A stretch of 39,189 bases of DNA, from positions 1 through 39,189 of the forward strand of contig JBBDJW010000002.1 in NCBI GenBank assembly GCA_040879685.1, in the 5' to 3' direction. Both the position numbers and the translations under genes were made by a program. This document shows positions 3,884-30,703 of this stretch, piece after piece. Position 1 is the first letter of the stretch. Every line of letters starts with the position of its first letter. The stretch is from Minisyncoccota bacterium. GTDB lineage: Bacteria; Patescibacteriota; Minisyncoccia; Phycocordibacterales; UBA2135. The notes under the pieces were generated by a model, which searched no databases, was not told where the DNA came from, and worked only from the letters and a program-made list of their open reading frames with translations.

Positions 3884-4022
3884 CCCATTAGAGATAGAGC
3901 GCGTACACACGGATGACTTGCGCTCTCTCGGTTATTTCTGGTAATAGTTTGTTTTTCTGCATATTTTGTTTGATTACAGCGTCTGCGATTTCTAACGGGA
4001 CTCATATACGATAATACACAAT

Positions 4023-17890: not shown

Positions 17891-18784
17891 ATGGCGACAC
17901 TCTACACACATTACGATAGCAACACGCGCCGGACATGGGTCTTAATGGCCGCTTTTTTTATTGCGGTTATTTTTCTCGGATGGGCGTTTAGCTGGATCTT
18001 CAATAATTCTATCATTCTTTATGTCGCAGTCTTTTTGAGTATTGCGATGAACGTCGGAAGCTATTACTACTCGGATAAACTCGTGCTCAAGATGACAGGG
18101 GCGCATGAAGCATCTGAAAAAGAGTATCGCGAGTTACATACTCTTGTAGAGAATTTAGCAATTACCGCAGGGCTTCCAAAACCAAAGGTTTTTGTTATGA
18201 AGGAGACGGCTCCAAACGCCTTTGCTACAGGGCGAAATAAGGAACATGCGGTTGTTGCGGTTACTGAGGGGCTTTTGACGCTTCTTGAACGCACAGAGCT
18301 TGAAGGGGTGATTGCTCATGAGCTTTCTCATATTGGTAATCGCGATATGCTTGTCTCAACCATTGCGGTTACGCTTGTGGGGTTTGTAACACTTCTCTCT
18401 GACTTTTTTTTGCGCTGGTCTTTGTTTGGTGGCGGGGGAGGAGATCGCGATGGACGAATACAAATTATTATGACACTAGTAGGTGTTGTATTGGCGATTC
18501 TCGCACCGCTTGTCGCACTCCTTATTCAACTTGCTATTTCACGCAAGCGAGAGTTTTTGGCGGATGCTTCCGGTGCACTGCTGACTCGTTATCCCGAGGG
18601 GCTCGCAAGCGCGCTTTCAAAGATCGGAAAATACTCCGCGGAAATGAAGCGGGCCAACCATGCAACGGCGCATCTTTTTCTCGCTAATCCTTTTGGCAGT
18701 AAAAAGGAGCGTGGCATACACAGGTGGTTTATGACACACCCTCCCGTCTCGGAGCGCATCAGTGCACTGAGAGGAGAGAGATAA
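17891..18784 (+). CDS. htpX: M48-family zinc metalloprotease HtpX
   Basis: The HELSHI zinc motif, 4 TM segments, and the classic pairing with lemA. Confidence 0.9.
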   Translation: MATLYTHYDSNTRRTWVLMAAFFIAVIFLGWAFSWIFNNSIILYVAVFLSIAMNVGSYYYSDKLVLKMTGAHEASEKEYRELHTLVENLAITAGLPKPKVFVMKETAPNAFATGRNKEHAVVAVTEGLLTLLERTELEGVIAHELSHIGNRDMLVSTIAVTLVGFVTLLSDFFLRWSLFGGGGGDRDGRIQIIMTLVGVVLAILAPLVALLIQLAISRKREFLADASGALLTRYPEGLASALSKIGKYSAEMKRANHATAHLFLANPFGSKKERGIHRWFMTHPPVSERISALRGER

Positions 18785-18871
18785 AAAAGGTTTGTCTTAT
18801 GAGCTTATCTTGTGTAGGCTCATAAGAGAGTGCACAAGCACAAATTCATAAAAGTGTTCGGCATGAACGGA

Positions 18872-18941
18872 GGAGGAGTGGCTGACCACCTCCTTTGGCG
18901 GGGCCTCGCCGTAGGCGAGGGTGGTCTAAGGCGCACGCTTG
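18872..18941 (+). other. 5' portion of an interrupted (outer) tRNA-Ser-like gene, with a 37-nt D-loop insert
   Basis: GGAGGAGTGGCTGA + 37 nt (18886-18922) + GGTCTAAGGCGCACGCTTG. Apart from the insert it is identical to nt 1-35 of the intact tRNA-Ser at 19001. Confidence 0.55.
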
Positions 18942-19000
18942 TTCCCAATTTACACAAGAGCGAAGCGATTGTAATGTAAATTGCAATCCCTGCACATGGC

Positions 19001-19090
19001 GGAGGAGTGGCTGAGCGGTCTAAGGCGCACGCTTGGAAAGCGTGTGAGGGTTTACGCCCTCCGCGAGTTCGAATCTCGCCTCCTCCGCCA
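19001..19090 (+). tRNA. tRNA-Ser (anticodon GGA), class II with a long variable arm, CCA encoded
   Basis: Cloverleaf: GGAGGAG TG GCT GAGCGGTCTAA GGC G CACGC TTGGAAA GCGTG, variable arm TGAGGGTTTACGCCCTC C, GCGAG TTCGAAT CTCGC, CTCCTCC G CCA. Confidence 0.92.
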
Positions 19091-19099
19091 TGTGCAGGA

Positions 19100-19149
19100 G
19101 AAAGCGTGTGGGGTTCATACCCTCGCAGGTTCAAATCCTGTCTCCTCCA
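19100..19149 (+). other. 3' portion of the interrupted (outer) tRNA-Ser-like gene
   Basis: GAAA GCGTG, variable arm TGGGGTTCATACCCTC, T-arm GCAGG TTCAAAT CCTGT, acceptor CTCCTCC, discriminator A. It is complementary to the 5' portion at 18872-18941. Confidence 0.55.
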
Positions 19150-19281
19150 TATTTATAAAACTAAAAAATTTGAGAGAGGAAGGAGAATCTGAAAGAGAGA
19201 GCATCACGCGTGGTTCTCTGGTATGATGAAGGTGGTGTATAGCAAAATTTTTCTTGTAAAAATTTTGCTATACTTACTCGT

Positions 19282-19755
19282 ATGTCAGAGACGACACAAA
19301 ACATTACCCTCCTTCTTTTAACTTCACTTGCGGTGAGTTTTATTTTTCTTTCAGACGCGCCGCAAGAAGCGTCACAAAGTTGTAGCCACACACCGCTTCC
19401 CGTGAGCGAGGTCGCTTTTAAAGAACATACATTAGTTGTTGAGCTTGCAACAACCGTTGTTGCGCGAGAATGTGGTCTTTCATATAGAAAAGAGATCAAA
19501 GAAGGGCATGGAATGCTTTTTGTGTTTGAAAAAGAAGGATACCATGGCATCTGGATGGAGCATATGAGATTCCCTATTGATATTATCTGGCTTGATGAAG
19601 CCCTTCGGGTAGTTTCTATAAAAGAAAATGTCTCCCCCGATTCATTTCCAGAAGTTTTCTCACCGTCCGCTCCTGCTTTGTATGTTTTGGAGGTGAATGC
19701 CGGAGAAGTTTCTTCGCACTCTTTCTTTGTAGGAGACACCATCTTTCTTCGCTGA
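19282..19755 (+). CDS. DUF192 domain-containing protein
   Basis: N-terminal anchor and a DUF192-like core (GLSYRKEIKEGHGMLFVF, MRFPIDIIWLD). Confidence 0.75.
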   Translation: MSETTQNITLLLLTSLAVSFIFLSDAPQEASQSCSHTPLPVSEVAFKEHTLVVELATTVVARECGLSYRKEIKEGHGMLFVFEKEGYHGIWMEHMRFPIDIIWLDEALRVVSIKENVSPDSFPEVFSPSAPALYVLEVNAGEVSSHSFFVGDTIFLR

Positions 19756-29651: not shown

Positions 29652-29725
29652 GCGAGATTAGTTTAATGGTAAAATGATTGCTTCCCAAGCAATAGACACG
29701 AGTTCGATTCTCGTATCTCGCACCA
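29652..29725 (+). tRNA. tRNA-Gly (anticodon CCC), CCA encoded
   Basis: GCGAGAT TA GTTT AATGGTA AAAT G ATTGC TTCCCAA GCAAT AGAC ACGAG TTCGATT CTCGT ATCTCGC A CCA. Confidence 0.9.
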
Positions 29726-29766
29726 CACACCACACATATCTTTCAATGCCTTTGTTGGTGTGGGGG

Positions 29767-29888
29767 CAAGCAGTAGACATTCCCGCCACAAGCGCGGGTC
29801 GGGTAGCTCAGATATTTTCGGATCCCGAGCTTGTCGAGGGAGAATGAAAATATTGAGCGAAGCTGACCGATTCTCGCTGGCCGCACCA
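29767..29888 (+). other. tRNA-Gly-derived mosaic: a 3'-half-like copy interrupted by an 88-nt structured insert
   Basis: CAAGCAGTAGACA (29767-29779) matches tRNA-Gly 29686-29698 at 12 of 13 positions. CGATTCTCG (29868-29876) and CGCACCA (29882-29888) match the tRNA-Gly 3' end. The insert contains GGTAGCTCAG and a long hairpin at 29806-29858. Confidence 0.45.
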
Positions 29889-29940
29889 GAGCGAGAAGTG
29901 TGCTATACTAAGGCTATTGTAAGGTAATTTCAAAAAAGGT

Positions 29941-30283: not shown

Positions 30284-30355
30284 GCCCCCGTAGTTCAATG
30301 GATAGAACAGGCCCGTCCTAAGGGCTCGATGTGGGTTCGATTCCTGCCGGGGGCA
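30284..30355 (+). tRNA. tRNA-Arg (anticodon CCT), no encoded CCA
   Basis: GCCCCCG TA GTTC AATGGATA GAAC A GGCCC GTCCTAA GGGCT CGAT GTGGG TTCGATT CCTGC CGGGGGC A. The T-stem has two G:U pairs. Confidence 0.85.
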
Positions 30356-30703
30356 TCAACCAAAAATACTCACGTTTGCCGTGAGTGTTTTTGATTGGTG
30401 CAGGAATCGAACGGAAGTCTGGGAGGAGACTTCCGCGGGATTTTCCCTGGGAGGAAAATCGATTCCTGCCGGGGGCATCAACCAAAAATACTCACGTTTG
30501 CCGTGAGTGTTTTTGATTGGTGCAGGAATCGAACGGAAGTCTGGGAGGAGACTTCCGCGGGATTTTCCCTGGGAGGAAAATCGATTCCTGCCGGGGGCAT
30601 CAACCAAAAATACTCACGTTTGCCGTGAGTGTTTTTGATTGGTGCAGGAATCGAACGGAAGTCTGGGAGGAGACTTCCGCGGGATTTTCCCTGGGAGGAA
30701 AAT
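30337..30703 (+). repeat. Three perfect tandem copies of a 122-bp unit that begins with the last 19 nt of tRNA-Arg
   Basis: The units start at 30337, 30459 and 30581 and are identical at every base by direct reading. Confidence 0.95.

Follow-up and report, generated by a model that had tools for sequence, protein, structure and literature searches.

A small structured DNA element that probably disrupts essential RNA genes of Patescibacteria and supplies their replacement

We analyzed a 39,189-nucleotide (nt) contig of a Minisyncoccota bacterium (JBBDJW010000002.1 of GenBank assembly GCA_040879685.1, hereafter the window), in which an intact tRNA-Ser(GGA) lies between the two halves of another tRNA-Ser(GGA) gene, and found that the 158-nt segment separating these halves belongs to a conserved structured family, named E in this study. 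We consider it probable that E is a small mobile cassette that acts at the DNA level, disrupting an essential RNA gene and supplying its replacement. An earlier note on this DNA had left two readings side by side, the footprint of a small element that carries a replacement copy and a split or intron-containing gene that yields two tRNAs. The former is supported by the conserved element itself, which was found at ~118 loci among the matches listed, in both orientations, in several RNA genes and with decaying outer copies; the latter may suit the window locus, where the stems of the outer tRNA are intact, but suits the family poorly.

E consists of the sequence TTCC, a covarying hairpin of 8-9 base pairs (bp; HP1), the sequence CAAT, a covarying clamp helix, CCC(G)...(C)GGG, with a whole tRNA inside it, and a terminal A. 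Its ~60 nt without cargo form a frame, and in the window this frame shows the TTCC, the 8-bp HP1 of the family model (R1, see below), CAAT and the CCC(G) clamp ending in (C)GGG-A. Among 80 loci collected by their HtpX gene, the same nested layout, ...TTG^TTCCCGATTTGT-loop-ACAAATCGCAATCCC, helix, tRNA-Ser(GGA), helix, GGGA^GAAAG... (carets mark the borders of E here and below), was present in loci L046, L059, L073, L012, L062 and L002, and L058 harbored the same core with no enclosed tRNA. A search of metagenome contigs with a core pattern returned at least 120 loci; after 12 chance or unclear matches were discarded, ~118 credible copies of E remained among the matches listed, from genomes of the candidate phyla radiation (CPR) and from metagenomes, and all counts of cargo, junctions and decay given below rest on these copies. 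The same pattern produced five chance matches in coding DNA of viral contigs, none of them real.

The conservation of E is that of a structure. HP1 is an 8-bp stem whose two distal pairs, left free in the search pattern, covary (GC 67, AT 11, TA 9 and CG 4 at one pair, TA 80 and CG 18 at the other), and in an alignment of 53 cores 99.1% of its positions were paired, with double changes in five of the eight pairs, a level reached by none of 500 shuffles. The covariance model R1 was built from this alignment. Since the window sequence is in the seed, its match (58.1 bits, E-value of 4e-10, the sole canonical copy in the window, positions 18936-18996) arises by construction; the non-seed loci L059, L046, L073 and L002 scored 35-60 bits, and across 585 kb of unbiased HtpX loci R1 detected seven copies of E, all of them in the anticodon loop of tRNA-Ser(GGA). 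The clamp, which the earlier note had described as a 12-bp helix worth comparing among related genomes, indeed covaried, with a score of 0.62 compared to 0.20 after shuffling, in 40 nested elements that were selected because they pair. The nucleotide following the clamp was A in 66 of 91 elements. The tip of HP1 often reads GAGC-GNA-GCGA, and the DNA mini-hairpin d(GCGAAGC) stands out for its exceptional stability; the resemblance of the GCGA-type tip to it may serve as a lead only.

Intact tRNAs were enclosed by the clamp in 70 copies of E, namely 27 Ser(GGA), 18 Ser(TGA), 10 Cys(GCA), 7 Ala(CGC), 4 Ser(GCT) and 4 Arg(GCG). Wherever the 3' end of E could be located, the nucleotides flanking it rebuilt the anticodon of the very tRNA that it encloses (TTG^GAAA, TTG^AAAA, TG^CTAA and TTG^CGGA, or CTG^CAAA and TTCG^CAT when the core lies on the other strand), so that the 7-nt loop is restored exactly and not one base is duplicated. 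Joining the outer halves at these points yielded genes that match uninterrupted tRNAs elsewhere at 92-97% identity (97% for L165 and L121, 95% for the outer Arg of L091 and L059, and 92% for the window and L094), by which the junctions are fixed. The enclosed tRNA was always on the same strand as the interrupted one. The core of E, by contrast, is antisense to the host gene in every Cys nest, every Ala nest and the 5S rRNA relics described below, the cargo staying co-oriented with the host. The host transcript therefore need not carry the conserved strand. The wobble pairs of the clamp were read on the element strand, using a detection rule that treats G.T and A.C alike, and G.T exceeded A.C both in sense hosts (28 vs 5) and in antisense hosts (12 vs 3). 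This bias suggests that E is a DNA-level element whose own strand folds, as in transposons that move as single-stranded DNA hairpins.

The inner and outer copies of the nests differ in their state of preservation. All 70 inner tRNAs were uninterrupted, while at most 24 of the 70 outer genes were still called as tRNAs of the right anticodon and length once E alone was removed. Outer genes in L002, L012, L152, L145, L134 and L197 lacked arms, and others carried extra inserts: GC palindromes or members of the CCACC..GCGGGGCC..GGGT family in the D loop and antisense copies of E in the T loop. The inner tRNA-Cys is 100% identical among loci L097, L202 and L103, which also have E, the outer 3' half and the flanks in common, but only L097 has kept the outer 5' half. 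Among the ~118 copies we saw no E-interrupted tRNA that lacked an intact copy inside or adjacent to it. The decay of the outer genes and the constant presence of an intact copy argue that interruption by E inactivates the gene; the inner tRNA is presumably the working gene and the outer halves a relic.

Comparison of the alleles indicates that the cargo comes from elsewhere. Where both were intact, the identity of inner and outer alleles was 51-89% over their 5' halves and 52-85% over their 3' halves, the differences in the stems being compensatory, and loci L143 and L152 carry 100% identical cargo and cores of 85% identity in unrelated flanks, with outer halves of 69% and 50% identity. Moreover, nests of two and three levels, each level with a different allele, were found in L160, L093, L104, L190 and L121, as would be expected from repeated invasion of whichever copy is currently functional.

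In the window the nest occupies positions 18872-19149 (Table 1), and all base-level statements of the earlier note on it, concerning the outer halves, the hairpin, the 12-bp helix and the insert, proved correct when the sequence was re-read and its pieces were compared by script. The 158-nt segment is inserted between G34 and G35 (TTG^GAAA), and its 12-bp clamp continues the acceptor stem of the inner tRNA into a 19-bp helix. The inner tRNA-Ser(GGA) was recognized both by ARAGORN and by the Rfam tRNA model (RF00005), where it scored 55.1 bits and the gathering score is 29, in agreement with the earlier note. A 14-mer of the outer 5' part, GGAGGAGTGGCTGA, has two exact copies in the window compared to 0.17 expected by chance. 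The outer 3' half has a 4-bp variable arm of its own (TGGGGTTCATACCCTC), a T arm (GCAGG/TTCAAAT/CCTGT) and the acceptor strand CTCCTCC followed by A, and the joined outer sequence reads CGCTTG^GAAAGCGTGTGGGG where the inner counterpart reads CGCTTGGAAAGCGTGTGAGGG. Folding of the 278-nt stretch gives one cloverleaf inside another (minimum free energy of -144.9 kcal/mol, z = -9.3, equaled by none of 200 shuffles). Once the D-loop insert is taken out, the joined outer gene adopts a class II cloverleaf fold with all outer stems intact and is identical to the intact tRNA-Ser(GGA) of L094 at 78 of 85 positions. The discriminator base, A in the outer and G in the inner copy, was rejected as a sign of decay, 7 of 59 tRNA-Ser(GGA) having A in a crude count. 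A scan of positions 18650-19400 found no promoter or terminator, and a search of positions 18780-19290 against Rfam (cmscan, E ≤ 10) returned tRNA only, with no group I intron, known self-cleaving ribozyme or other family; the conclusion of the earlier note that the segment is not a group I intron was thereby borne out, as RF00028 had no match. We conclude that the outer gene is probably the resident tRNA-Ser(GGA) of a Patescibacteria chromosome, split by a non-coding cassette of 158 nt.

Table 1. Features of the nested tRNA-Ser(GGA) locus of the window
Feature	Position	Strand	Remarks
Outer tRNA-Ser(GGA), presumed relic: acceptor 5' strand and start of D arm	18872-18885	+	Identical to inner nt 1-14
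Second small hairpin insert, in D loop of outer copy	18886-18922	+	CCACC..GCGGGGCC..GGGT family, 37 nt
Outer tRNA: remaining D arm, anticodon-stem strand CACGC, loop TTG through G34	18923-18941	+	Identical to inner nt 17-35
E, 5' module: TTCC, HP1, CAAT, C	18942-18988	+	Covariance model R1
HP1 hairpin, tip GAGC-GAA-GCGA	18946-18983	+	9-bp stem, 18946-18954 with 18975-18983
Clamp helix (HP2), 5' strand CCTGCACATGGC	18989-19000	+	Pairs with 19087-19098, 12 bp
Inner tRNA-Ser(GGA), intact, CCA encoded; cargo	19001-19090	+	ARAGORN; Rfam RF00005
Clamp 3' strand GCCATGTGCAGG (overlaps tRNA GCCA) and element-terminal A	19087-19099	+	Family 3' end ..TGTGCGGG-A
Outer tRNA-Ser 3' half: GAAA, GCGTG, variable arm, T arm, acceptor 3' strand, A	19100-19149	+

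The 37-nt insert of the outer D loop, which takes the place of two D-loop nucleotides and has no counterpart in the inner tRNA, had been recorded in the earlier note as a detail of the locus; it is present as described, and it represents a second, independent insertion family. Members of this family were found at the same D-loop site in relic 5' pieces of tRNA-Ser in the window, in L046 (position 5684), in L058 (3404, the same as L115 at 3300) and in L104, and in this sample they were found in such pieces only.

On these grounds we propose the following course of events. The cassette, made of a fixed 8-9 bp hairpin with a variable tip and a clamp helix that bears in its loop a complete tRNA with no promoter of its own, would insert between G34 and G35 of a resident tRNA-Ser(GGA). 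Insertion would kill the resident gene, for which the cargo tRNA would substitute, and with the one destroyed and the other in its place the host would come to depend on the cassette. The inner tRNA would be transcribed from the promoter of the old gene and freed by RNase P and 3' trimming, with RNase III possibly cleaving the 19-bp helix, and the outer halves would be by-products of a dead gene, hit later by the second insertion in the D loop. Only cognate insertions would be expected to survive, because the targets are loops of essential structured genes. As for mobility, we would guess first at a mechanism in which hairpins of single-stranded DNA act on the loops of structured genes, and homing by homologous recombination through the outer halves may be an alternative.

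A different explanation is that E is a genuine intron, with the 158 nt (and the D-loop insert) removed by an endonuclease and a ligase or by self-cleavage, so that two tRNA-Ser(GGA) isodecoders would arise from one gene, the inner one as a passenger of the intron. The intact outer stems of the window and the class II cloverleaf of its joined product are what such splicing would call for, up to 24 of the 70 outer genes likewise remain recognizable tRNAs after removal of E, the inserts sit in cloverleaf loops like those of archaeal multi-intron tRNAs, and conserved junction nucleotides together with covarying helices have an RNA-like appearance. Yet the core is antisense in all Cys, Ala and 5S cases, where the host transcript would carry its complement, and the wobble of the clamp follows the element strand rather than the host strand. 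Many outer genes are truncated or armless, an intact copy accompanies every interrupted gene although a splicing-competent intron would not need one, no known ribozyme or intron family matched at E ≤ 10, and no bulge-helix-bulge can be drawn, both junctions lying in one 7-nt loop. We therefore regard a real intron as unlikely, and we are just as reluctant, indeed slightly more so, to accept the broader proposal that E and the D-loop and T-loop inserts are all RNA-level introns of a Patescibacteria pathway, in which the intron-borne tRNA would serve as a processing handle.

The remaining explanations invoke other events at the DNA level. Phages and genomic islands integrate into tRNA genes, and anticodon-loop integration with a carried replacement segment is reportedly classical for tyrosine integrases, which would allow the outer halves to be read as partial tRNA copies of the attL/attR type left by an element that was later almost wholly deleted; the T-loop-anchored array of three 122-nt units at the tRNA-Arg of the window (described below) would be in keeping with such a history. 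We find this very improbable, because a single crossover cannot duplicate both the 5' and the 3' half around a complete tRNA, because an element of 158 nt with conserved hairpins has the same boundaries in ~70 nests, and because integrases were neither found in the window nor seen to recur next to E. A tandem or partial duplication of tRNA-Ser followed by deletions and gene conversion, which would make the nested appearance fortuitous, draws on the identity of the inner and outer 5' halves in the window and on the frequency of partial tRNA duplications next to tRNA genes, and is in our view already largely refuted: the conserved module is common to all ~118 loci with their different host genes, inner and outer alleles are usually 51-89% identical, L143 and L152 carry identical cargo in unrelated contexts, and the clamp helix covaries. 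There is accordingly very little room for such a local accident, and less still for an assembly chimera made of two tRNA-Ser alleles that coexist in a mixed population. The metagenome-type contig and the break of the L206 contig within the 5' part of tRNA-Ser would be in line with the latter, but the precise architecture and the covarying helices recur in many assemblies that were made independently, in different studies and with different assemblers. An assembly error, which the earlier note had named as a possible undoing of its observation, is thus contradicted by L046, L059, L073, L012, L002 and L208 and by dozens of metagenome contigs.

Several points weigh against a mobile disrupt-and-replace cassette. 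No same-species pair of filled and empty alleles was recovered, the HtpX identity of the nearest relatives being 84% and 73%. In and beside E, we found no gene for a transposase, integrase or nuclease, and its mobility is deduced from its distribution alone; the near-exclusive insertion into cognate genes is explained here by an argument from selection rather than by a targeting rule. The pattern by which the metagenome copies were collected demands TG before the element. The asymmetry of the wobble pairs is dominated by one position, and its counts are not independent and may reflect inheritance. Finally, the window's outer tRNA, with its intact stems and a 5' half identical to that of the inner copy, would also suit a gene under selection. 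For a cassette these identical halves, which are unusual among the nests, require a recent insertion or gene conversion, and we infer either gene conversion or a closely related donor. To look for a linked enzyme, we clustered 1,279 open reading frames (ORFs) lying within 3 kb of E, which yielded syntenic housekeeping genes and one GIY-YIG-like ORF that belongs to the 16S inserts.

E shares traits with a number of known systems. Like the phages, islands and integrative and conjugative elements that target tRNA genes, it would disrupt a tRNA, restore its function and leave the displaced part as a partial repeat, the integrative elements often doing so in the anticodon or T loop; unlike them, it carries a whole tRNA nested between both displaced halves, measures 158 nt, is non-coding with two hairpins, enters in either orientation, is also present in 5S rRNA, in a group I intron and in a protein gene, and has no linked integrase. 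No recombinase was found in the window, and none recurred within 3 kb of E at the ~118 loci. Similar to miniature inverted-repeat transposable elements (MITEs) it is small, ORF-less, structured and present in many copies, and similar to mobile insertion cassettes it holds a passenger gene, in 70 of its ~118 copies a tRNA. However, its ends (TTCCCG...CGGGA) share only ~5 nt and no base is duplicated, in place of terminal inverted repeats and target-site duplications, and it differs from MITEs, insertion cassettes and palindrome-associated transposable elements (PATEs) in that its passenger, invariably the counterpart of the gene hit, is held within a hairpin loop, and its targets are loops of structured RNA genes. 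The hairpins and the absence of target-site duplication are also features of IS200/IS605 elements; in a comparison to these and their PATE derivatives, the G.T bias is suggestive, the TG at the 5' flank was imposed by the search pattern, and the cargo lies inside the second hairpin rather than between hairpins. No ORF for a TnpA of the Y1 (HUH) type was found within 3 kb of E.

Group I introns of bacteria interrupt a tRNA anticodon loop at the same 34/35 position, as in tRNA-Leu(UAA), whereas E has G instead of U at -1 (G18941) and A instead of G at its 3' end (A19099), comprises 158 nt, of which 90 are tRNA, compared to the ~200 nt or more of such introns, and shows no catalytic core (P3-P9, RF00028). 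Disrupted tRNAs of archaea resemble the nests in that short structured inserts occupy the D, anticodon and T loops, sometimes several in one gene; they are set apart by the bacterial host of E, the intact backup that is always present, the decay of interrupted copies and the lack, on inspection, of a bulge-helix-bulge (3-4-3), the opposed junctions being in a 7-nt loop. Synthetic Cleave and Rescue (ClvR) elements inactivate an essential gene and supply a linked rescue, by which they become hard to lose, an analogy that is conceptual only, as E is natural, based on RNA genes and has no known nuclease. Together, these comparisons leave E as probable tRNA-targeting, function-restoring mobile DNA, possibly with a new mechanism of mobility. 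In the literature searched we found no published description of nested tRNAs or of tRNA introns in CPR, and to this extent the earlier note's remark that a tRNA within a tRNA has no bacterial precedent stands; the nested structure itself is common in Patescibacteria genomes.

Outside tRNA genes, a cargo-free E was found in the 5' peripheral part of a group I intron of 16S rRNA genes (L120:5260-5655, L137, L144, L089 and L126), which we count in favor of the cassette, as this is a non-essential place where no replacement is carried. The intron of L120 matched RF00028 at 39 bits with its R and S elements present, its insertion site in 16S is GU^GCCAGCAGCC, and E is flanked there by TATG on its 5' side and GAAAG on its 3' side, resembling the Ser loop. 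A separate upstream 16S insert of L120 and L137 encodes the putative GIY-YIG-like ORF, recognized by eye. In a further group (L100:1083-1357 and L101:560-1120, as well as L099, L102, L122, L135 and L176), a complete 5S rRNA lies in a long CCCCGC...GCGGGG inverted repeat within an outer 5S relic, with an antisense mini-E in loop C. Copies of E flanked by GGTCGGAATG and GGAAGAGG were at one point taken for insertions into signal recognition particle (SRP) RNA; this was rejected, as Rfam and reading of the sequences identified them as 5S rRNA relics with E in antisense. A survey of rRNA insertions in CPR recorded no 5S insertions of 100 bp or more, and tRNA is not mentioned there (PMC11270868). 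A separate class of tandem arrangements, in which a fragment, E and a short piece precede the full gene, was likewise dropped, since L100 and the Ala loci turned out to be nests with an extra mini-E in the outer half; L058 and the tpiA of L172 do not fall under this reading.

Other contexts of E were seen at single loci. In L142 (core at 1740) it holds a nested hairpin RNA of ~70 nt (CCGGCUGCCACGACGAGCAC...GGAGGUCACC...UGGCAGCCGG) within an outer copy of the same RNA, for which no Rfam family reached its gathering score. In L172 (core at 3974), 26 nt of a tpiA start (MPKLIIVNW) are followed by a mini-E, 12 nt of tpiA, TAACCA and the full tpiA (MKKLIVANWKLN), and L200 is a second protein-gene context. 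We also observed an unrelated type of cargo-bearing insert, located in the D loop after GAGTGG in L005, L016, L057, L074, L093 and L208, which is composed of a hairpin, ~60-100 nt of sequence and a clamp helix surrounding a complete tRNA-Ser(GGA). Of these loci, L005 comes from an assembly at chromosome level (OZ244961.1).

Relics or repeats adjoin four of the six tRNA genes of the window. At its beginning, on the minus strand, there is another nest around a tRNA-Gln(CTG) (98-169), which has TTCCC (207-203) and an atypical spacer before it and, after it, GTGCGGGA (94-87), a 3' end of the E type. The outer pieces of this tRNA-Gln, on the same strand, include the acceptor strand TGCCGGA (289-283), a D arm with a hairpin insert of ~26 nt, a second hairpin insert (239-212), and an anticodon arm, T arm and TCCGGCA at ~45-1; outer and inner copies show compensatory pair differences, and the tRNA-Lys that ARAGORN calls at 1-93 is a miscall of the relic. 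R1 did not detect this variant nest (1-289). At tRNA-Arg(CCT) (30284-30355), a 122-nt unit begins in the T loop and is repeated 3.0 times at 100% identity (30337-30703). The unit contains, on the minus strand, the T-arm-like sequence GGTGCAGGAATCGAAC, and the array could be a T-loop-anchored insertion, a duplication or an effect of assembly. Downstream of tRNA-Gly(CCC) (29652-29725) lie relic Gly 3' parts (29760-29890), ..GTAGACA at 29773-29779 and GATTCTCGCTGGCCGCACCA at 29869-29888, split by a TTCCCGCC-ACAA-GCGCGGG hairpin at 29780-29798.

The window is an ordinary Patescibacteria (Paceibacteria-like) chromosome. A Pfam scan of its 28 ORFs identified a Pif1-type helicase, Obg, KsgA, RNase J, GroES/GroEL, LemA, HtpX, DUF192, class II ribonucleotide reductase, MurJ, LepA, a class I aminoacyl-tRNA synthetase and TsaD, and no integrase, transposase, recombinase, RtcB or EndA. 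Its GroEL matched TIGR02348 at 700 bits, indicating a bacterial host, and an archaeal origin was ruled out by the bacterial GroEL, HtpX and RNase J. A phage origin was rejected as well, since blastn against 50,697 phage records gave only tRNA-level matches of ~75%. All relatives of the window's HtpX were Patescibacteria (metagenome-assembled genomes of Paceibacteria and Parcubacteria), with identities of up to 67% in GTDB genomes and up to 84% in the protein collection, and the order HtpX, tRNA-Ser(GGA) was conserved across the HtpX loci. Exact-protein look-ups with HtpX, DUF192 and LemA, made for alleles of the same species, returned the window alone. The contig of the closest HtpX relative, L206 (84%), stops 19 nt into the 5' part of tRNA-Ser (3900-3918), consistent with assemblers failing at duplicated tRNA halves.

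In practice, tRNA finders miscall such relics, assemblies break at these repeats, and surveys restricted to long rRNA insertions miss the 5S cases. If the segment were instead an intron, the view that bacteria lack protein-type tRNA splicing would be overturned, and if all of the inserts were RNA-level introns, tRNA genes with multiple introns, as in Thermoproteales archaea, and two tRNA-Ser(GGA) per transcript would follow. As a mobile cassette, E would be a natural disrupt-and-rescue selfish element made of ~60 nt of structured DNA and a passenger tRNA, and the enzyme that places it at a defined phosphodiester bond of a hairpin loop, in either orientation and with no target duplication, would be worth finding. 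It would swap the host's essential tRNA or 5S allele for its own, be hard to lose and leave stacked fossils, so that the nests would constitute a molecular record of past invasions and E a new route for the horizontal replacement of core translation genes in uncultured Patescibacteria.

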